Part shown: positions 5,045 to 40,113 of the stretch, piece after piece
Layout of the letters: every line of letters begins with the position of its first letter
Position numbering within the stretch: the first letter of the stretch is position 1
From: a virus
IMG/VR virus record: IMGVR_UViG_3300045988_023147
Strand: one strand, 5' to 3'
DNA: 45,305 nt
Notes under the pieces: model-generated
Seen by the model: the letters and a program-made list of their open reading frames with translations, nothing else
Told to the model about the DNA's origin: nothing
Databases searched by the model: none
Made by a program: the position numbers and the translations under genes

Positions 5045-6301
5045 TTATGCACTGTGCCCCCTTCTCATGGACAATGGACTGGTTGCGTATCTGAGAGAAT
5101 CTATCCAATGATCGTTGCCATCTGGATAATCTGCAATCACTTCTCCATTGCTATCTACTTCATGCTCATAATTGATAATTTCCTTGTATGCTCTCGGTGT
5201 TCTTGCTGGATCAATAACCAGTGTTCGACATTGCAGCCACTCAAATGTATATTTACGGCTACCTGGAGTGACTATTGCTCTACGCGCTGGAAGCCCCGCA
5301 TCCCGAAAGTCAATAATGCTTTCTTCTTCATCAACTCCGCAAGAGATTGAGTAATCATCATATCCTTTTTTCTTTATCTGATTAGCCATTTCCTTGTTTC
5401 TTATCTTGGAACCTCCAAGCTCGTCTAATAAAAAAACTTTTTCCTGATTAGGAACATAAGCTACACGAAGAAATGCTTTAGGATCTGGATACCACCCCCA
5501 GTCCTGACCCTGGTAGATGCTTTGAAAGCTCTGAATCTCTTCATCTGTAATTTCTCGAATTTCTAACAGTTCGAAAATATTTGTGCCAAGTCCAACAGGA
5601 AGACCAAGATATTCATGGTCGTAAGCTCTCTGATTTGTCTTTCTCAAATGCTCCGCATCATCAATAAATTGCTGTCCAAGCCATTCAACAGGAACTGATC
5701 TATAATCGCTCTTGTGCCTGTAACTGTCAGTTCTTGGCTCTTCTACGTACACGTTCGCCCAGTTGCTTCGGCTGATCGGTGGATTAAATGTCTTAAATAC
5801 TTCAAATTTGCTTCCACCACGAAGTACAGACTGTTGGACTGTACGGATTTCTTCAATTCCGGCAAACTCATCAAGCTCCTCAAACCAAAGGTACTTGAAA
5901 TATCCTTTTTTTACTTTTATGGACTTTGTTTTCTTAGCTTTATCCAGTCCTCTGAATATGATCTTTTGTCCTGTTGGCTTATACACATATTGCATAGGAC
6001 TTAAACTGTCAGCCCACAAATCACTTACTCCAAGCGCATCAATCCCCCATGCGATCTGTTCATACACAGATTCTCTGAGCGTATTACCGACTTTCCGAAA
6101 GATTACAGCATTTGACATTAAGCCGTTCTCCGCATCCTGCATCATCTGAAACGGAATCATGCTGCCTACAAAAGATGATTTTGTAGATCCGCGTCCGCCA
6201 TACAGATCATAGTAAGTGTGTTTACCATCTAAAATATCCCAAAACACATCGTAAAATGCCGGTGCTACAATCTCATTCAGTTTGATAGCATTACTTTCCA
6301 T
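5045..6301 (-). CDS. terL: Terminase large subunit (PBSX/Terminase_3-6 type)
   Basis: Walker A LYGGRGSTKSSF, 418 aa, C-terminal nuclease-like acidic motifs. Overlaps terS by 11 nt. Confidence 0.9.
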   Translation of the reverse strand: MESNAIKLNEIVAPAFYDVFWDILDGKHTYYDLYGGRGSTKSSFVGSMIPFQMMQDAENGLMSNAVIFRKVGNTLRESVYEQIAWGIDALGVSDLWADSLSPMQYVYKPTGQKIIFRGLDKAKKTKSIKVKKGYFKYLWFEELDEFAGIEEIRTVQQSVLRGGSKFEVFKTFNPPISRSNWANVYVEEPRTDSYRHKSDYRSVPVEWLGQQFIDDAEHLRKTNQRAYDHEYLGLPVGLGTNIFELLEIREITDEEIQSFQSIYQGQDWGWYPDPKAFLRVAYVPNQEKVFLLDELGGSKIRNKEMANQIKKKGYDDYSISCGVDEEESIIDFRDAGLPARRAIVTPGSRKYTFEWLQCRTLVIDPARTPRAYKEIINYEHEVDSNGEVIADYPDGNDHWIDSLRYATSPLSMRRGHSA

Positions 6302-22855: not shown

Positions 22856-22867
22856 GGAGAAATGAAT

Positions 22868-23455
22868 ATGAAAAAGAAAATTTTTGCGGTATTATTATCA
22901 GTCGCGTTTGCGGTATCATCTTCTGTATCCGTCTATGCTGATGAAAAAGATGATAAAATCGCAGATCTTGAGAACCAAGTTGTTGAACTGCAGAACACTA
23001 TTGATGAGCTTCAGAAACAATTGAATGAAGCGTTGGCATCCACAACATCAACCTCTCAGGAAACTTACAAAATTGGAGAAACTTATATTGTTGAGGGACA
23101 ATGGAAAATCACTGTTAATTCAGTAGCATCTACTGATGATCGTAACGAATATAGTGATAAAACTCCAGGCGCAGTGTACATAGTTACATATACCTATGAA
23201 AATATAGGATATGAAGATGACTATTTGGATGGGTTATATATAAATCTGGAAGATGGAATTGTTGATAGTACTGGAAAAATGGGATATTCTTATCCTGGCG
23301 ATGTTTCGATGTATCCACAAGAAACACCTGTAGGAGCATCTTGTCAGGCCCAGGCGTGCATAGGTGTTGATAATCCTGGAAATTTTAAAATTAATTTTTC
23401 CACTTATGATGGAAATAGCGAAAAGCAGTCAGCTGTTTTTGAAATTGAAGTTTAA
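22868..23455 (+). CDS. Secreted DUF4352-like (Ig-fold) protein with N-terminal coiled coil
   Basis: Signal peptide KKKIFAVLLSVAFAVSSSVSVYA. GETYIVEGQWKITVNSV...YIVTYTYENIG pattern is typical of DUF4352. Start set at the second ATG (RBS spacing 8). Confidence 0.55.
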   Translation: MKKKIFAVLLSVAFAVSSSVSVYADEKDDKIADLENQVVELQNTIDELQKQLNEALASTTSTSQETYKIGETYIVEGQWKITVNSVASTDDRNEYSDKTPGAVYIVTYTYENIGYEDDYLDGLYINLEDGIVDSTGKMGYSYPGDVSMYPQETPVGASCQAQACIGVDNPGNFKINFSTYDGNSEKQSAVFEIEV

Positions 23456-23475
23456 TTTGGAAAGGTAATGATAAT

Positions 23476-23826
23476 ATGAAAACTTGGAAACTGGTATCCG
23501 GTATTTTATCTATTATTTTGTTTTTTATGGTTTCCTTTCAATCATGTGCAGTAGGAATTGGAAATACATTAAGTGAATCAGGAGAAGCAAGCGGATCCGC
23601 TGGAATCATTGTGGCGATCATGCTTTTATCTGGAGGAATTGTTTCTATCGCAACTAGGAACGGCGGAAAAGGTGGAAACATTGCATTAATAGTATTGTTT
23701 GGAATAGCAACACTATTCGGTTACACTTTAGCCGGCAGTTTTTCCGATTTAAATATTTGGGCAACTTGGTGCCTTATCAATGTTGTTTTGGCAGTCATTG
23801 CACTCGTAAAAAATAAAAACGCATAA
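23476..23826 (+). CDS. Four-TM membrane protein (116 aa)
   Basis: Four hydrophobic segments. Coupled downstream of the DUF4352-like gene. Confidence 0.6.
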   Translation: MKTWKLVSGILSIILFFMVSFQSCAVGIGNTLSESGEASGSAGIIVAIMLLSGGIVSIATRNGGKGGNIALIVLFGIATLFGYTLAGSFSDLNIWATWCLINVVLAVIALVKNKNA

Positions 23827-23994: not shown

Positions 23995-25170
23995 ATGGCG
24001 AAGAAGAAAAGAAAGAAATACCCAAATCTACCAGCAGGTTTCGGCACGATCAGATATTTAGGAGCCGGCAGAAGGAACTGCTATGCCGTACATCCACCAG
24101 CGAAGGTCAATGAGCTTGGCAAAACTGTCCGTCCACCTGCGATTTGTTACGTGGACGACTATGTAAAGGGCTTTGCAGTCCTCACAGCTTACAAAGCCGG
24201 AACGTATCAACCTGGAATGGAGCGAGAATTGGAGATTGCCCCCACAACGGACGCAGATGCCCTTTTAAGCCGCATATTGGCAGACTACAATACAATTAAG
24301 GGTGTAGAGGATAAACACCCGGAAATCAAGAAATTGACGTTTACAGAGGTGTACGAACAATTCTGGGACTGGAAGTTTTCAAACGGAAAGCTTTCAAAAT
24401 CTTCAAAACAAAATTACGCTGCTGCCTTTAAAAATTGCAAAAAAATTCATGAACGAATTTTTGAAGATTTGAAAGCCACTGAAATGCAGGAAATTCTTGA
24501 CAACTGTCCTCTTAAACACGCAAGCATTGAATTAATCCTGAATTTATTCAAGCAGATGTACAAGTACGCCATTTTTGCGGAAATCGTATCTGACAACAAA
24601 TCCCAGTATTTGCGAATTACCGCAAGTGAGGACGATCAGCATGGAGTCCCTTTTACTGAAGAGAATCTTAAAACACTCTGGGAACATTCTTCGGATCCAG
24701 AAGTTCAGATGATTTTGATAATGTGTTATAGTGGCTGGCGCATTAATGAATTGGTAAATTTAGAAATAAATCTAAAAGAAAAATATTTTCGAGGTGGATC
24801 AAAAACAAATTCTGGAAAAAATAGAATTGTTCCAATCCATTCATGCATTTATGAATTTGTAAAGAAGAGAGTTGACCGTTACGAATGTTTAATCCCTTAC
24901 ACCACAAATCATTATAGAACAAGCTATTTTTGCCCGACTTTAGAAAAGTTAGGAATAATCGGGAATCCAAGGCATACACCGCATGATTGCAGGCACACGT
25001 TTTCAATGTTGTGCGAAAAATATGGAGTCATGGAAAATGACCGTAAGAGAATGCTTGGGCATTCATTCGGCGGCGATGTTACAAACTCTGTTTACGGTCA
25101 CCGGACATTGAAAGAACTCTGCGCAGAGATTGAGAAAATAAAAGTTCCGTTTGTGACTAATTGTGACTAA
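23995..25170 (+). CDS. int: Tyrosine integrase
   Basis: ATG 23995 (GAAGGAA RBS). Catalytic pattern WRINEL (R) ... HDCRHTF (HxxR) ... GHSFGGDVTNSVYGH (H...Y). Adjacent to attP-like repeats. Confidence 0.85.
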   Translation: MAKKKRKKYPNLPAGFGTIRYLGAGRRNCYAVHPPAKVNELGKTVRPPAICYVDDYVKGFAVLTAYKAGTYQPGMERELEIAPTTDADALLSRILADYNTIKGVEDKHPEIKKLTFTEVYEQFWDWKFSNGKLSKSSKQNYAAAFKNCKKIHERIFEDLKATEMQEILDNCPLKHASIELILNLFKQMYKYAIFAEIVSDNKSQYLRITASEDDQHGVPFTEENLKTLWEHSSDPEVQMILIMCYSGWRINELVNLEINLKEKYFRGGSKTNSGKNRIVPIHSCIYEFVKKRVDRYECLIPYTTNHYRTSYFCPTLEKLGIIGNPRHTPHDCRHTFSMLCEKYGVMENDRKRMLGHSFGGDVTNSVYGHRTLKELCAEIEKIKVPFVTNCD

Positions 25171-25393
25171 TCAGAATATTATAATATGCAATTAGTCACA
25201 ATAAAATGGAATAAGAAATATCTCGAACCCCGCATAAATACTGAAAGAACAAGATTTATTAACTGTTTTACAAATTTGATATTGCTTAAATATTTGTTGA
25301 TTCTGATTTTTTCGTCCATGTAGCTATTATACTGAATTTATAAGGTTTTTGCAAGTTTGTAAGATTATATATTGTGACTAATATGTGACTAAT
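25151..25393. promoter_or_regulatory. attP region with five arm-type repeats (T/A)TGTGACTAAT
   Basis: Direct copies at 25151-25161, 25161-25171, 25372-25382 and 25383-25393. Inverted copy at 25191-25201. ~170 bp AT-rich candidate core between them. Confidence 0.65.
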
Positions 25394-25446
25394 TAAATTA
25401 ATTTAAAATGGTATAAAATAAAAGATAATACAATATTTCTTCATGT

Positions 25447-25486
25447 AAAAAGACCTCCCAGGTATTCCCCGGGAGGTTTATTTTTA
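25447..25486. terminator. Bidirectional intrinsic terminator between int and endolysin
   Basis: ACCTCCC/GGGAGGT stem flanked by an A-run (5') and a T-run (3'). Confidence 0.75.
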
Positions 25487-26488
25487 CTTTTTCTGGATGT
25501 ATTTAGCTGACACGAATCCATAATATTTCCCAGCAATGCGGATATAAAACCAGCTTGTGCCGTCCTTTGCTTTCTGTGTGTAATTCATTATCTCTACTTC
25601 ATTTCCCTGGTTAAGCTTCGGGTATTTTTTAATGTTTGGATACTCGGTTCCAGCCCAGGTACGAACATTCAGAACAGTTGCAGCAACATTTCCTTTAAAG
25701 AGAACCTGGCTCCTATCCTGCTTGTCTGTGATAGTGGAAGATTCGGAATTTGCCTTTTCCGCCAGATATCCAGTCCAGATCCAGCCAATACCGATTCCAT
25801 CAACCTTAACGTGTGTCCACTTGCCGTTTGTTTTTCCGTCAGTTTCAACAACAGTTCCTTTATTGATTGAACCCATAACGTAACCATTCGGTGCTTCACG
25901 GACGTACAAGTCATTTACTGTTGCTACTCTGGTTCCTGTCTTTTTCCAAGAAGTGATATCTTCATAGGTTTCCCAATCAATCCAAACATATCCATCAATG
26001 GAAGAATCACTGATTAAATAGGACTTATTTCGGACTGCACCGCCATTTGCTACTACTCCAGCTGCACTAGAAGTATTTCCTTCGTTTGTATAGATTCTCG
26101 AGCTATCAAAACTCTGAATATCAGCCACATGGGAGCCATTTCGGAAGATTACAAGCGCACCTACCTTTGGAGTATTGTGCCAAGTACCTTTTTTCTTAGC
26201 CCAATTAGTGATTGATACACAATTGTAAAAACCTCCGCCCATAATCTGTAAGGCTTTTGTGATTCCTAAAACATTAACCAATTTCCAAAACTGGTACTCC
26301 GCACACCACGGCTGCCCCTGGCATCCTGGTTGCCCCCATGAATTTACATCACGTGCAAATTTGGTGTAATTATTGTATCCTGCATTCTTTTTAAAATCAT
26401 CCAGATAGGCATTACTTTTCTTTTCCAGATATCCGCCATCTGCAGCATACTGATCACCGAGGTTAAGAAATTCCTGTAATTTGCTCAT
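25484..26488 (-). CDS. Endolysin: N-terminal CHAP-type amidase/peptidase plus two SH3b-like wall-binding repeats
   Basis: ATG 26488 (GAAAGGAA RBS). GQPWCAEYQFW (catalytic Cys) and NGSHVADI (His). C-terminal repeats VNDLYVREAPNG... and TVLNVRTWAGTEYP... Confidence 0.8.
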   Translation of the reverse strand: MSKLQEFLNLGDQYAADGGYLEKKSNAYLDDFKKNAGYNNYTKFARDVNSWGQPGCQGQPWCAEYQFWKLVNVLGITKALQIMGGGFYNCVSITNWAKKKGTWHNTPKVGALVIFRNGSHVADIQSFDSSRIYTNEGNTSSAAGVVANGGAVRNKSYLISDSSIDGYVWIDWETYEDITSWKKTGTRVATVNDLYVREAPNGYVMGSINKGTVVETDGKTNGKWTHVKVDGIGIGWIWTGYLAEKANSESSTITDKQDRSQVLFKGNVAATVLNVRTWAGTEYPNIKKYPKLNQGNEVEIMNYTQKAKDGTSWFYIRIAGKYYGFVSAKYIQKK

Positions 26489-26555
26489 TATATCATTCCT
26501 TTCATATTTGTTAAGTCTATGATATCTTCTCTTTAAATAAATTACATCCCCCACT

Positions 26556-27554
26556 TTAAGCCACAGACTTACGATGATTTCTTTTAACGTCCTCATCACA
26601 GGTTTTTGCGTACACCATTGTTGTGTTTACATTTGCGTGGCCTAGCATTCTCTGTACATCTGTTATTGGGGTATCTTTTCGGAGCATATCTGTGGCAACT
26701 GTGTGGCGGAAGAGATGAGGGAACAGATCTCTGCCTATTCCAGATCGTTTTCCAAGGTTCCTGATTACTCTTTCAATAGCTTCCTTTTTTAGTCCATTGT
26801 GTGGTTTTCTCTCTGAAACAAACAAGTATTCAGATTGATCAGTTCTTGTGTTGAGATATTCTTTTAAATATAGGATAGACTTTGCGCTCAAATAGGAAGT
26901 TCTATATTTACTGCCTTTCCCAAATAATGTCACTTCTCCTTTTTCAAAACTTACATCTGATATTTTTATATTACATGCTTCTGTTACTCGCGCCCCTGTG
27001 CTGTATAGAAACTCCACAAGGGCTTTTTCCCGGATTGTTTTACAGGCTATTCTTACTTTTTCCAGTTCAATGGAAGTAAGTCCTTCTCTTTCTTTTCTCT
27101 GATATTTAATTTTTTTGATAGATCTACATGGATTTTTCTCAATATATCCTTCATCAGTTGCCCAGGTAAAAAATGCATGAATAGCAGCCCTGCGACTATC
27201 AAGTGTGCGATCACTTATGTTTCGCTGCTTTTGTACCTGATATAGATATACTCTTATATCATTTGCTGTGATTTCTTCAAATCCTTTGTTTACTGCAAAA
27301 AAGAAATCGTCCAGATAAAGATTGTATTGTTCCAATGTTTTTTCACTTAATCCTTCTATTTTTCTGCTCACAAAATATATTTTGTAACATCCCGGAAGAT
27401 ATCCGGTGTACTGTCCAACTGCTGTTTCCCTTTGGCTCAAATCATAGTCTTCTATGTATAAGAAAAGTTCATTTTTAACTATCTTAAGAGTTTCTTCTGG
27501 TATCTTTTCGTATAGATTGGTGATAAATTGATTTACAAATTGATCCTTATCCAT
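26556..27554 (-). CDS. Second tyrosine recombinase, XerC/XerD-like (332 aa)
   Basis: SAM-like N-domain (ITANDIRVYLYQV...AAIHAFFTWA). Catalytic STGARVTEA (R), HLFRHTVAT (HxxR), LGHANVNTTMVYA (H...Y). GGAGGG RBS. Confidence 0.85.
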   Translation of the reverse strand: MDKDQFVNQFITNLYEKIPEETLKIVKNELFLYIEDYDLSQRETAVGQYTGYLPGCYKIYFVSRKIEGLSEKTLEQYNLYLDDFFFAVNKGFEEITANDIRVYLYQVQKQRNISDRTLDSRRAAIHAFFTWATDEGYIEKNPCRSIKKIKYQRKEREGLTSIELEKVRIACKTIREKALVEFLYSTGARVTEACNIKISDVSFEKGEVTLFGKGSKYRTSYLSAKSILYLKEYLNTRTDQSEYLFVSERKPHNGLKKEAIERVIRNLGKRSGIGRDLFPHLFRHTVATDMLRKDTPITDVQRMLGHANVNTTMVYAKTCDEDVKRNHRKSVA

Positions 27555-27574
27555 AAAAATACCCTCCTTTTGGG

Positions 27575-27603
27575 TTCACAAAGGGAAGGTACTATGTTAT
27601 AAT
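27575..27603 (+). promoter_or_regulatory. Strong plus-strand promoter inside the AbrB-recombinase intergenic region
   Basis: TTCACA (27575-27580), 17-nt spacer, extended -10 TGtTATAAT (27595-27603). Confidence 0.6.
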
Positions 27604-27609
27604 ATAACC

Positions 27610-27673
27610 GTACCCTTTGTGGTGCTTGGAGTTGGACTTTTTGTTTGGTAGACTGGGAGTCCAGCTCCTTTTT
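27610..27673 (+). ncRNA. Candidate ~65-nt antisense sRNA (promoter-to-terminator unit) opposite the AbrB-like/recombinase intercistronic mRNA
   Basis: Predicted +1 near 27610. 11-bp terminator stem 27628-27638/27658-27668 whose single non-WC pair is a G-U only in the plus sense, followed by UUUUU (27669-27673). No plus-strand ORF. Confidence 0.45.
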
Positions 27674-27828
27674 CATGCTTTCTTAATTGTTATCTTTTCT
27701 TCGTCACATTCGAGAATTACTTTTCGATCTTCTTTCGTAACTCCAATCATTCGGACGGCTTCAGCTGGAAGTGATACTTTGTAATTGACAGATTCTTTTC
27801 CAGCGTTTCCGCCGACTTTGTTTATCAT
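27673..27828 (-). CDS. AbrB/SpoVT/MazE-type looped-hinge-helix DNA-binding protein (51 aa)
   Basis: ATG 27828 (GAAAGGAA RBS). VSLPAEAVRMIGVTKEDRKVILECDEEKITIKK matches the SpoVT-AbrB pattern. Confidence 0.6.
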   Translation of the reverse strand: MINKVGGNAGKESVNYKVSLPAEAVRMIGVTKEDRKVILECDEEKITIKKA

Positions 27829-27881
27829 GATGTTCCTTTCTACTTTTATTAATCTCACCCCCCTATAATGCTTGTGAGATT

Positions 27882-27910
27882 ATTATATGCTATTGGTGTC
27901 CAATAGTCAA
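27882..27910 (-). promoter_or_regulatory. Consensus-like promoter driving the AbrB-like/recombinase(/endolysin) unit
   Basis: Minus sense TTGACT, 17-nt spacer, TATAAT. The spacer contains the palindrome ATTGGACACCAAT. Confidence 0.6.
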
Positions 27911-27926
27911 TCAGAAGATTAATTGC

Positions 27927-27950
27927 TTCGCTAAAGTCTGCTTTAGCGAA
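27927..27950 (-). terminator. Perfect 10-bp hairpin immediately after the tail-fibre stop codon
   Basis: TTCGCTAAAG/CTTTAGCGAA with a 4-nt loop. No clear U-run, so it may be an RNA-end-stabilising or partial terminator element. Confidence 0.45.
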
Positions 27951-29816
27951 TTAACTGATACTACGGATAAATCCCGTAACTGTTCTTCCCATAACCTTAT
28001 GCCCCTCTGTGCCTGGATGTACAAGATCTTTTGAACCATCAGCAGAAGTTCGTGTGAAAAGAACATTTTGCATACTCGTTATATTGGGATCAATAGGACA
28101 ATTCGCATACATATCACAACAGTAAATACTGTATTGTCTACATTTTACTATTAGAGCATCAACAAAATCCTCTAATTTTAATCCGAGAGTATTATCTGCC
28201 TTATAAATTCCTCTTTTAATCGGTGTCATCATTACTACAGGTATAGTTGGATATTTCTCTTTCAGTGCTGGTAGAAGAATATTTAATGCACCGTTAAAAG
28301 TTGTATTGTCTAAGCTGTCAAAATCTCCCAAAAGCGTATTTCCATGCGCCCAATCGTTTGTTCCCGCTGCAATTATAACGAGATCAATGCCACTATCTGG
28401 ATAATTCATATACCGCAAAACAATAGAATGCTCAGGATCATTTTTCCCAGCTTCATTACTGATTGTACTCCCTCCGATTCCCTTCCATCCGTCTGCATAT
28501 CCCTCATTTCCAAGTCCGACAACAGATGTATCAAGTATCATATCAAGTGCCATTGCAACATTAAACTGCCAAAAATTGGATGTATAGGCATGTGTAATGC
28601 TATCTCCATCTACCCATAGTCTCTTTCCACGCCAGGGATTAGCCGGATGTAACGGGTCATATTTTGCGAACTCGTAATACGGTTCGTACTCAATTCCGTA
28701 AGTACCCTTTATAATCATTAAATCTTTAAGAGCATCGTTATTTTCAACTGCCGTAGTAGAAAATCTAATATATTTTGTTGTAGAATAAGTCGTAATTTTA
28801 ACGCCTCGTACGTTTACGTTGATATTGCTTTCTAAGTTAGGAAGCAATATGGTTGCTCTCTGTATTAAACTATCCGCCGTATTCCCACTGAACTCTGCAA
28901 AAATGATATTAAAACTTTTTTTTAATGAACCAGTAATAAAATAATCGGTATCAGGTTCAACTGGTATGAACTCACTTCTCCTCAATTTCAATGTTTGACC
29001 GCCAGTTTCATCTGCATATTTACCGAACGTATCATTTTTATAGTTGTACAGATTTTTACCGTGCTCAGTAATCATAGAATTATCAGCAGATTGATATTCC
29101 TTTTCCTCTACATATTCAAATTCTACTGGCTTTCCATCTTCAATTCTCTTAATCGCAAGTATATTTCCAACTTCATACCCATTTCCGTTGTACATAGCAT
29201 CATGTGCCGACTTGTATTCACTAAAAAATGTATCATTCGGTTTTTTTATCACGAACGGAACATAATCAGTTGCAAATGTTCCTTCTTCCAACTGGCAGCC
29301 AATAATTTTTTTTGCGTTATCCTTTGAGAATGCTCCAAATCTGATTTTGCTGAATCCATCAGGAATCACAACTGTCGCATTGTTTACAGCACCTCCTACT
29401 TGTGGGTTTTTATCATATGCACGCGTATTTCCATTATCATCAGCAAAACCAATAGAGAAAGCACTCGGCGAAGTAGACGGGTTGCTAATTGTGTATGAAG
29501 CACCACTTTGAACATTAATCCAATCGGATGATATACATCCAGATACATTACGATCAAATGTTCCTGCGCGAGTATTTTGAAGCAATTTGGCTTCATTGAA
29601 AAGGTTTTTCGATTTAATTTCTACTACTAAATCTTCCTTTAGCGAAGCAATTGCTTCATCCGTTTTTTTGTTTTTTTTGCCAACTACGGCGGCATCAGCG
29701 AAGCCACCTTCAACGGTTAAGCTTGGATCTGATGTTGGTATGTCTAAGATACTTCCATATGGCAGCTGTCTTTTTTTTCCGTCTGCAGTCACAATTCCTT
29801 TAAATGTATCAGTCAT
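27951..29816 (-). CDS. Tail fibre / receptor-binding protein with C-terminal SGNH (GDSL) hydrolase domain
   Basis: LWVDGDSITHAY (block I), GTNDW (block III), DLVHPGTEGH (block V) in the last ~230 aa. Position distal to the tail-tip protein. Confidence 0.7.
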   Translation of the reverse strand: MTDTFKGIVTADGKKRQLPYGSILDIPTSDPSLTVEGGFADAAVVGKKNKKTDEAIASLKEDLVVEIKSKNLFNEAKLLQNTRAGTFDRNVSGCISSDWINVQSGASYTISNPSTSPSAFSIGFADDNGNTRAYDKNPQVGGAVNNATVVIPDGFSKIRFGAFSKDNAKKIIGCQLEEGTFATDYVPFVIKKPNDTFFSEYKSAHDAMYNGNGYEVGNILAIKRIEDGKPVEFEYVEEKEYQSADNSMITEHGKNLYNYKNDTFGKYADETGGQTLKLRRSEFIPVEPDTDYFITGSLKKSFNIIFAEFSGNTADSLIQRATILLPNLESNINVNVRGVKITTYSTTKYIRFSTTAVENNDALKDLMIIKGTYGIEYEPYYEFAKYDPLHPANPWRGKRLWVDGDSITHAYTSNFWQFNVAMALDMILDTSVVGLGNEGYADGWKGIGGSTISNEAGKNDPEHSIVLRYMNYPDSGIDLVIIAAGTNDWAHGNTLLGDFDSLDNTTFNGALNILLPALKEKYPTIPVVMMTPIKRGIYKADNTLGLKLEDFVDALIVKCRQYSIYCCDMYANCPIDPNITSMQNVLFTRTSADGSKDLVHPGTEGHKVMGRTVTGFIRSIS

Positions 29817-39843: not shown

Positions 39844-40113
39844 TCACTCTTTCTGCACTGTCTGCTTAATAATCTGATTCACACCAGTAGCCGACAATCC
39901 GTTAAACATACCGACTGCAACCGCCGTGATATAATCCGTTGCCGGGAAATCCGGGATAATTCCCATCCCGACTGCTCCGAGAATTCCACCAATAACCGCC
40001 ATGATCACCGGAATCCATTCATCAGAGATTCTTTTTGATGCTTTGCAGCCCATTCCTACGATGTAGCAAATCATAACGATTGCTACACATGAGCCTAATG
40101 TTGAAATATCCAT
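39844..40113 (-). CDS. Holin-like membrane protein (89 aa; A118/LL-H-type pattern)
   Basis: SDEWIPVIMAVIGGILGAVG ... GMFNGLSATGVNQIIKQ parallels the Listeria A118-type holin pattern (KWLP..S.LIGAILGA ... GAGGTGLFEQF). 2-3 TM segments. Confidence 0.55.
   Translation of the reverse strand: MDISTLGSCVAIVMICYIVGMGCKASKRISDEWIPVIMAVIGGILGAVGMGIIPDFPATDYITAVAVGMFNGLSATGVNQIIKQTVQKE

Follow-up and report, generated by a model that had tools for sequence, protein, structure and literature searches.

The window analysed here, the whole 45,305-nt stretch of viral DNA recorded as IMGVR_UViG_3300045988_023147, resembles the genome, complete at about 45 kb, of a temperate phage. Downstream of its tail-fibre gene lies a gene for an Xer-type tyrosine recombinase which, judged from related phages, is probably the enzyme of a shufflon-type tail-fibre variation module, in a single-cassette variant and under antisense-RNA control. 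The original prediction for this region, made from the letters of the window, listed features that were all found where it had placed them, and held that the role of the recombinase could not be decided from the sequence; the relatives point clearly to recombination of the receptor-binding cassette of the fibre. Second integration and multimer resolution are unlikely roles. The elements on which this reading depends are the following.

27951-29816, minus strand: tail-fibre gene, with a C-terminal GDSL/SGNH domain (PF13472, 2e-11) and a match to a PHROG tail-fibre family
29631-29816, minus strand: constant fibre anchor of about 62 amino acids (aa), 87-95% identical in relatives with unrelated fibre ends
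27951-29630, minus strand: variable receptor-binding cassette of about 557 aa with an SGNH/GDSL esterase end, bounded by S1 and S2
29637-29652, minus strand: candidate site S1, AATTGCTTCGCTAAAG, inside the fibre gene at codons A55-K60 (AIASLK), the constant/variable junction
27918-27959, no strand assigned: candidate site S2, an imperfect palindrome that spans the fibre stop, with an exact inverted copy of S1 at 27921-27936 (plus strand)
26556-27554, minus strand: Xer-type tyrosine recombinase of 332 aa (PF00589, 5.4e-39), starting 396 bp downstream of the fibre stop

A repeat search revealed a 26-nt inverted repeat of which one half lies in the hairpin region behind the fibre gene and the other inside that gene, at a distance of 1.68 kb. 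The sequence AATTGCTTCGCTAAAG has only two exact copies in the window; these are mutually inverted, the second lying 15 nt past the fibre stop, and by our estimate about 0.002 exact inverted 16-nt pairs would be expected by chance in 3.6 kb. S2 also holds a partial direct copy of S1 (27941-27956, minus strand, 13/16) that overlaps the fibre stop codon. The perfect 10-bp hairpin at 27927-27950, which had been taken to insulate the recombinase unit from the fibre gene, is present, its arms weak and AT-rich. The lack of a U-tract on both strands rules it out as a canonical terminator; it is instead the inverted partner of the 16-bp sequence within the fibre gene.

The two sites delimit a striking pattern of variation among close relatives. 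The recombinase protein of the window recurs with 100% identity on 17 contigs, and a 98% variant is found on 14 more. Among these contigs and two further ones from the JGI metagenomes there are at least 9 unrelated fibre variable parts (versions include an SGNH one of 621 aa, a beta-helix one of 560 aa and others of 491, 723, 783 and 797 aa), which combine with either of two endolysin types and with an integrase that is either a tyrosine or a large serine enzyme. In all contigs spanning both sites, the variable part starts right after ...AATTGCTTCGCTAAAG(GAAGAT) and stops at the inverted copy, ...TTTAGCGAAGCAATTAATCTTCTGAT. S1 lies upstream of every variable fibre end examined in the window clade, where the contig reaches that far, and the variability boundary falls at S2 in every relative (...TTTAGCGAAGCAATTAATC). 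The fibre homology of the window with all relatives ends at 29626-29631, i.e. at S1, and all homology breakpoints with relatives coincide with S1 or S2. The unrelated fibres nearly all terminate in (I/V)N and a stop codon, written TTAACTAAA; since this common ending supplies the second arm, S2 is an imperfect palindrome of the form CTAAA-N4-9-TTTAG.

The arrangement extends well beyond the window clade. At E <=1e-20 the recombinase has 751 related proteins, nearly all of about 331 aa, and IMG/VR holds 388 loci. In relatives of 33-100% identity, on unrelated phage backbones, the gene stands directly downstream of fibre genes. The cultured phages Terrisporobacter TPELB_ph1 and C. perfringens phiCp-D carry it between the tail fibre and a holin-endolysin pair, under the plain annotation "integrase".

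The most informative relatives are three loci (L095-L097) whose recombinases are identical to one another and 52% identical to that of the window. Their flanks are 99.8-100% identical and they differ only between copies of a core, CTAAATAGTAAG, where the stretches differ completely. The core occurs 4-5 times per locus in alternating orientation: within a short fibre gene, upstream of the recombinase gene, right after its stop codon and further downstream. Of 14 copies, 13 lead in frame into an open reading frame (ORF) of 84-114 aa, matching the expressed fibre end in size, the sole exception being a 24-aa stub in L095. As read from its sequence, this architecture is that of a shufflon with silent fibre-end cassettes. 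Across clades the site cores share CTAAA(G) at the conserved fibre motif AIxxL(K/N), and inverted repeats that differ in sequence recur at the fibre junction in at least three recombinase clades.

Two variations in gene content were seen among more distant members. In a 68-kb contig (L003, 5998-6994) the 61%-identical recombinase is split into two overlapping ORFs, by a frameshift or a sequencing error; in this clade and in a 65-67% clade the recombinase gene is followed by head-tail connector-like genes, not by lysis genes.

These comparisons bear on the suggestion that the repeats are unrelated to the recombinase, fibre ends being swapped by homologous recombination, the palindrome being an RNA or transcriptional element and the enzyme acting elsewhere, for instance in trans on invertible loci of the host. 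The flanks are conserved enough for homologous recombination, the palindrome after the stop codon is kept in recombinase-less relatives and no inverted state was observed, all of which such an explanation would accommodate. Nevertheless we regard it as unlikely: homologous exchange has no use for a 16-mer from inside the gene repeated exactly, and inverted, after the stop, the weakness of the palindrome arms and their want of a U-tract do not suit an RNA element, and both the recurrence of junction repeats with different sequences in separate clades and the existence of silent in-frame cassettes starting at the sites are left without a cause.

The original prediction described the small gene and the recombinase gene as a self-contained unit, and this description holds: the block 27935-26491, from S2 to just before the ribosome-binding site (RBS) of the endolysin gene, acts as a transferable module of 1.45 kb that travels as a unit, 96-100% identical in different backbones. 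The block is absent from most relatives that share the endolysin at 80-90%, and cassette-free relatives have a 27-nt filler between S2 and the endolysin RBS in its place. Such behaviour might be expected of an autonomous mobile element, or of a second integration/excision module, formed by the small gene and the recombinase and inserted beside the fibre gene, with the repeats as its target or by-product; one recombinase-less relative (L028) retains half of the leader of the recombinase gene, as after gene deletion. This explanation is very unlikely, however. The block has neither direct repeats nor att-like duplications at its edges, its fibre-adjacent position is kept across 33-100% protein identity and unrelated backbones, and the silent fibre cassettes that stand in frame on either side of the recombinase gene in the 52% clade would be left unexplained. 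The phage also has a complete separate integrase, as had been noted when the recombinase was called surplus to integration; in agreement with that view, the identical recombinase protein occurs both in phages with a tyrosine integrase and in phages with a large serine recombinase integrase.

Several recombinase-less relatives keep the S2 palindrome. In seven such loci (L007, L013, L045, L053, L055, L066 and L014, ~5925-5990) the fibre-end palindrome reads TTAACTAAAG-N4-CTTTAGCGAAG, and behind it, immediately ahead of the endolysin RBS, the same loci have another inverted repeat, one that contains GC (GCGCTCC...GAGGGGCGC).

The substrates of the recombinase would be the two inverted 16-bp AATTGCTTCGCTAAAG sites, one at the constant/variable junction of the fibre gene and the other just past its stop codon. 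We infer from the comparison of relatives that the enzyme cuts at S1 and S2, and any judgement on whether inversion or exchange would dominate has the same footing. Within one genome, recombination between S1 and S2 would invert the cassette and leave a fibre consisting of the anchor plus SALAN, an OFF state; the fibre would be truncated because reading in from S2 gives five codons and then a stop. The predicted inversion junctions are ...GATGAAGCAATTGCTTCGCTAAAG joined to TCTGCTTTAGCGAATTAACTG and ...AATTTCTACTACTAAATCTTC joined to CTTTAGCGAAGCAATTAATCTTCTG (the second also written ...CTACTACTAAATCTTC joined to CTTTAGCGAAGCAATTAATCTTCTG), and the predicted junction of a deletion or cassette circle is TTGCTTCGCTAAAG joined to CAGACTTTAGCGAAGCAATT. 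Between two genomes that share the site pair, the same reaction would produce a precise swap of the receptor-binding cassette and hence a change of host range.

Several results weigh against a shufflon-type role in the window clade. The predicted inverted junction had 0 matches in IMG/VR and in the JGI metagenomes, and a pattern scan of IMG/VR for the "empty" site also gave 0 matches. About 17 contigs have both sites, all of them in the ON orientation, and all-against-all BLAST of about 110 related loci found no inverted homologous segments. The test for inverted states is weak, since in the public collections open to DNA-pattern searches the cassette occurs in only about 4 copies (in a control scan, 2 JGI contigs carried it). 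No silent alternative cassette was found in the window clade on reading in from S2: the window gives ASLK-SALAN, five codons followed by a stop, and other clade members give 9-60 junk residues, so a defining feature of a shufflon is missing there, and the window has a single variable cassette of 1.68 kb. The S2 palindrome could have another role or be a relic, because several relatives retain it without a recombinase, and its central spacer differs between cassettes, which is unexpected if strand exchange occurs there. Homologous recombination in the conserved flanks could also yield the mosaic pattern, and to that extent the link between the enzyme and the mosaicism is indirect. Finally, the 52% clade, the clearest shufflon, is without the antisense leader described below.

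Two candidates for alternative states were examined and set aside. A protein query with the fibre N-terminus returned proteins of 53-97 aa, which by contig context are stand-alone or split anchor genes. Extra DNA between the fibre gene and S2 in L100, considered as a decayed silent cassette, encodes a conserved opposite-strand ribbon-helix-helix protein. The anchor of about 60 aa, ending ...SLKED, is seen also as a small gene of its own; elsewhere it lies between the portal and minor capsid genes, or in split genes before a polysaccharide-deacetylase tail protein (loci L118-L121, with a gene of 66 aa, e.g. L118 5001-5201, and L122 4751-5255).

For the window, two readings of the tail-fibre module remain: an ON/OFF inversion that is rarely used or biased, or an intergenomic exchange of cassettes. 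Exchange would explain the missing silent cassette, the presence of sites in recombinase-less relatives and the many cassettes found between identical flanks. Because the two sites are inverted, the cassette would not be deletable but could be swapped with that of a co-resident phage or prophage, and possible partners would include the relatives that keep the sites without a recombinase. On this basis we put forward, tentatively and as a possibility less likely than not, that the module is a natural recombinase-mediated cassette-exchange system for host range, in which the recombinase is kept rare by an antisense/anti-Shine-Dalgarno (anti-SD) leader, of a kind so far undescribed and shared by hundreds of gut phages. 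Fibre-end mosaicism would in that event be enzyme-driven and site-specific, not the result of chance homologous recombination.

The recombinase itself is, by sequence, an Xer-type enzyme that is catalytically intact and distinct from the integrase of the phage, as originally proposed. In addition to the PF00589 match, searches with SAM-like N-domains were positive (PF13495 1.4e-10, PF02899 8.6e-9), and the protein is without a lambda-type arm-binding domain. Without exception, 32 family members have R189, K213, H280, R283, H306 and Y315, which align with the catalytic residues of the solved XerA and XerD structures. The best solved relatives are archaeal XerA structures (4a8e, 1e-36); with the XerA model NF040815 the protein scores 218.5 bits, just below the cut-off of 220. 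It falls further below the curated cut-offs for XerC (TIGR02224, 175.3 vs 335.15) and XerD (TIGR02225, 171.5 vs 329.6), and below those of the integron integrase model (93.6 vs 265) and the tyrosine-type DNA invertase (Fim) model (50.1 vs 221). Residues 1-60 (27375-27554, minus strand) form a conserved N-terminal extension, with invariant L30, T44, Y49 and P54, that is covered by no Pfam or Xer model.

The leader of the recombinase gene contains the elements of a predicted antisense RNA and of a putative translational switch, in which the Shine-Dalgarno sequence (SD) and its antagonist take part.

27555-27672, minus strand: leader of the recombinase mRNA, 118 bp
27575-27603, plus strand: antisense promoter, TTCACA-17-TGtTATAAT, 11/12 with TG extension
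27610-27674, plus strand: predicted cis-antisense RNA, about 65 nt long, in which an intrinsic terminator follows a single-stranded 5' tail
27628-27638 and 27659-27669, plus strand: stem of the antisense terminator, followed by U5 (TTTTT)
27610-27621, minus strand: left arm of the leader, CACAAAGGGUAC
27577-27592, minus strand: right arm, or anti-SD, of the leader, GUACCUUCCCUUUGUG
27562-27569, minus strand: SD of the leader, AAGGAGGG

This leader is more conserved than the protein that follows it, as seen in 59 distinct versions preceding recombinases of 53-100% identity. In 36 diverse leaders the invariant columns are those of the antisense promoter (T.CACA of the -35, the TG, and TATA.T of the -10) and the spacer varies. 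The terminator helix is paired in 99.2% of cells, with covariation at 7/11 pairs, and the U-tract is kept downstream of the stem in 36/36 aligned sequences, interrupted in a few. The joint covariation score of the terminator and palindrome helices was reached by 0/500 shuffles, and shifted-register controls collapsed. The single G-U pair in the window from which a plus-strand RNA had first been argued is borne out by the family, because non-Watson-Crick cells of the terminator that form G-U on the plus strand only number 28, against 1 for the minus strand. For the predicted RNA of 65 nt the folding energy is -29.2 kcal/mol (z -5.2); a search of 25000-29000 against Rfam at E <=1 gave no match. 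Taken together, the conserved promoter, the covarying terminator and the strand-specific G-U pairs make a plus-strand antisense RNA over the recombinase leader a well supported prediction, and we infer that the RNA is made.

The window contains the inverted repeat 27577-27621 once only, where 0 would be expected by chance. In the fold of the full leader its left and right arms pair with each other, which leaves most of the SD unpaired. The SD region is a second stretch to which the right arm is complementary: when the left arm is removed, the SD (GGAG) is fully paired in 58/59 leaders, with a mean of -14.9 kcal/mol and z of -3.4. Compensatory changes in the anti-SD pairing are seen in divergent clades, e.g. 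CUCUUG/CAAGAG in L184. The few non-canonical pairs in the palindrome speak, by 7 to 2, for an RNA helix on the sense strand, which is weak evidence. From structure and covariation we propose a switch in which the antisense RNA triggers sequestration of the RBS. The recombinase would be restrained in three layers, of which the first is its promoter (see below). In the second, the convergent and constitutive-looking promoter in the leader would make the antisense RNA of about 65 nt. In the third, a three-part leader switch, pairing of the left arm with the anti-SD right arm would leave the RBS free, and sequestration of the left arm by the antisense RNA would allow the right arm to pair with the RBS and translation to be blocked.

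The same palindrome was considered as a recombination site for Xer/Cre-like multimer resolution, after the manner of XerS at difSL and XerH at difH. The recombinase is Xer-like with its best matches to XerA, and dif sites adjoin xerS and xerH. The palindrome outconserves the protein, and its arms change in step with distant recombinase clades; four contigs start at the right arm, and a deletion variant has its break at the centre. A dif-type site, with two arms of about 11 bp and a 6-8 bp centre, was nevertheless not found. The palindrome adjoining the gene has 9-bp arms 27 nt apart, against 6-8 nt in a core site, and S2 holds CTAAA-N6-TTTAG but with arms that are weak and unequal. The conserved positions of the leader palindrome are explained by the antisense -35, TG and -10 elements together with the alternative anti-SD pairing, and its few non-Watson-Crick pairs favour RNA on the sense strand. 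The scores noted above lie well short of the XerC and XerD cut-offs, and a plasmid prophage is not the obvious reading of a phage with an integrase. The palindrome is better accounted for by promoter elements together with RNA pairing, and multimer resolution there is kept as a minor and highly improbable rival to a role in fibre variation.

Two observations concern the palindrome directly. Four independent short-read contigs (L107, L112, L114 and L116) begin exactly at CCTTTGTG, its right arm. The recombinase-less L028 (~5930-5960) keeps the terminator and the left half and diverges at the centre. Fold-back artefacts or a hot spot could be responsible, or conceivably recombination at the palindrome.

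Between the fibre gene and the recombinase leader lies the second gene of the operon, preceded by the operon promoter.

27673-27828, minus strand: small protein of 51 aa with a predicted SpoVT/AbrB fold (phrog_2329, 4e-14)
27882-27910, minus strand: promoter TTGACT-17-TATAAT of the small-protein/recombinase operon, 11/12

The small protein had been described as SpoVT/AbrB-type. The protein of the window has no PF04014 match of its own, even at E=10, and the fold class stands on its family and its model. PF04014 matches 14/15 homologues of 51-92% identity (best 7.1e-5), a family profile run against the PDB finds C56 of pSSVi (3e-4) and the AbrB N-domain (0.03), and an AF2 model (pLDDT 79.8) has the order beta-beta-alpha-beta-beta that belongs to the swapped-hairpin fold. 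The top 15 Foldseek matches to the model are all AbrB, MazE, VapB, C56 or Sso7c4, albeit weak (E >=0.06; leading TM 0.36-0.59). On account of the homologue matches, the profile and the predicted fold, "AbrB-like" is reasonable at the level of the fold. The gene lies upstream of the recombinase gene in 50/108 loci and is an optional partner; in its place other relatives have the promoter alone, an opposite-strand ribbon-helix-helix gene or a Zn-ribbon-like protein.

The spacer of the operon promoter holds an operator-like palindrome, ATTGGTGTCCAAT (ATTGG-N3-CCAAT, 27892-27904), which is unique in the window. Promoter-like sites in the single sequence are not above chance (6 found vs 5.4 expected), so that their significance comes from conservation only: in 33 distinct upstream regions, with recombinases of 65-100% identity, the hexamers and the palindrome are near-universal, the exceptions being a few point variants and two divergent loci. 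The first layer of low expression would be this near-consensus promoter, presumably autoregulated by the AbrB-fold protein through the palindrome. An autoregulator or an accessory DNA-binding factor is the most economical reading of the 51-aa protein.

In some relatives one or two opposite-strand CopG-like ribbon-helix-helix genes stand between the fibre gene and the recombinase module, with the AbrB-like gene or replacing it.

L100 4266-4430, minus strand: ribbon-helix-helix gene
L109 301-474 and 635-802, minus strand: ribbon-helix-helix genes
L089 4512-4685, minus strand: ribbon-helix-helix gene

The closest described counterpart of the fibre module is Rin of Bifidobacterium prophages, an XerD-like armless tyrosine invertase encoded beside constant and variable receptor-binding-protein genes (Mavrich et al. 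2018, PMC6109161). Its sites are 11 bp long; the gene contains one of them, and the other follows its 3' end immediately (PMC6109161). In both cases an armless tyrosine recombinase encoded by the phage, apart from the integrase, lies next to a receptor-binding-protein gene, short repeats (11-16 bp) are found at the constant/variable junction and immediately past that gene's 3' end, and function was predicted from genomics. They differ in that Rin has several silent cassettes, with orientations differing in prophage and virion DNA (PMC6109161), whereas the window has one large cassette and no inversion was observed. No antisense leader or AbrB partner is described for Rin (PMC6109161). Its hosts are Actinobacteria and those here are apparently of gut phages of Clostridia type. 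As no Bifidobacterium phage appeared among tblastn matches at E <=1e-20, the relation is probably one of analogy and not of close homology. Among the papers searched, none describes a Rin-type system in Firmicutes phages. The family of gut-phage modules appears undescribed, the kind of system, a Rin-type shufflon, being most likely one already known if fibre rearrangement is correctly read from the sequences.

In the shufflon of the IncI plasmid R64, the tyrosine recombinase Rci inverts multiple segments and so changes the C-terminus of the PilV adhesin. The R64 sites are asymmetric, with a conserved arm and a core, and the sites here are likewise one-sided, the 16-mer being conserved and the other arm weak; R64 concerns a plasmid pilus and multiple segments, where the window has a phage fibre. 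The invertases Gin of Mu, Cin of P1 and Min of p15B are serine enzymes that use an enhancer and Fis, with an alternative fibre end always carried. The window resembles these in having the constant/variable junction of a fibre gene as the site, an adjacent recombinase gene and a predicted switch of host range, and differs in that its enzyme is a tyrosine recombinase. With XerA and XerC/XerD it shares domain layout and catalytic residues, but it has the 60-aa N-terminal extension, is phage-borne and fibre-linked, and has no dif-like 11-6-11 site.

In cassette exchange as engineered with Cre/lox, a cassette between inverted copies of a site can be swapped between molecules without deletion. The outcome resembles the identical flanks and unrelated site-bounded cassettes seen here, and we know of no case in which recombinase-mediated cassette exchange is a natural phage host-range mechanism. 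Unlike cassette capture by integrons, the module has no attC-like folded sites and scores far below the integron-integrase cut-off. As for the leader, IS10 RNA-OUT and R1 CopA are short, stable, terminator-ended cis-antisense RNAs from leaders of genes whose products must stay scarce. The predicted RNA has in common with them a convergent antisense position in the leader and a predicted effect on ribosome binding. The proposed route is indirect, in contrast to theirs, the antisense RNA freeing an anti-SD arm without covering the SD itself, and no Rfam or sequence relationship to RNA-OUT or CopA was found.

With a role in fibre variation, the unexplained second "integrase" between the tail and lysis genes of many Clostridia-type gut phages gains a testable job. 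If this role is the true one, modules for varying host range would form a large family beyond the Actinobacteria (>750 proteins, 388 IMG/VR loci), the sharp boundaries of fibre mosaics would be explained, and defined 16-bp sites and their enzyme would be to hand for retargeting gut phages. The conserved leader, covered by no Rfam family, offers a compact and well-constrained example of a predicted antisense/anti-SD switch.

The remaining features of the window relevant to its setting are these.

25484-26488, minus strand: endolysin with CHAP and SH3 domains
23995-25170, plus strand: separate integrase (PF00589, 31.9 bits vs a cut-off of 27.1; phrog_1, 1e-37)
39844-40113, minus strand: holin of 89 aa with at least 2 hydrophobic segments (phrog_1129, 1.9e-21)

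The structural and lysis genes are on the minus strand, between about 45 kb and 25.5 kb, the plus-strand lysogeny block including the integrase comes next, and minus-strand early genes fill the rest of the map. An ENA contig of 45,369 bp encodes the same recombinase protein in a surrounding gene order that matches the window. The endolysin is common to more than 80 IMG/VR contigs at 80-90% identity, a large group of human-gut phages. A nucleotide search of the cassette region against GenBank phages gave no match, and a scan of GTDB representative genomes for the host returned distant, irrelevant matches only. The recombinase cassette had been thought to occupy the slot of the holin, an idea that was dropped once the holin was located between the head and tail genes, about 13 kb from the endolysin; moreover, cassette-free relatives have no holin between fibre and endolysin, and other phages carry the recombinase upstream of a holin-lysin pair.

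A near-consensus promoter-like sequence at 26487-26514 (minus strand; TTAACA-16-TGnTATAAT, 11/12) overlaps the RBS and start codon of the endolysin gene, and cannot serve that gene. Beside the integrase (22862-23826, plus strand) lie genes for a lipoprotein-like, 197-aa DUF4352 protein and a 116-aa membrane protein with four segments (phrog_9418), predicted to be co-transcribed with the lysogeny genes and candidates for lysogenic conversion or exclusion.

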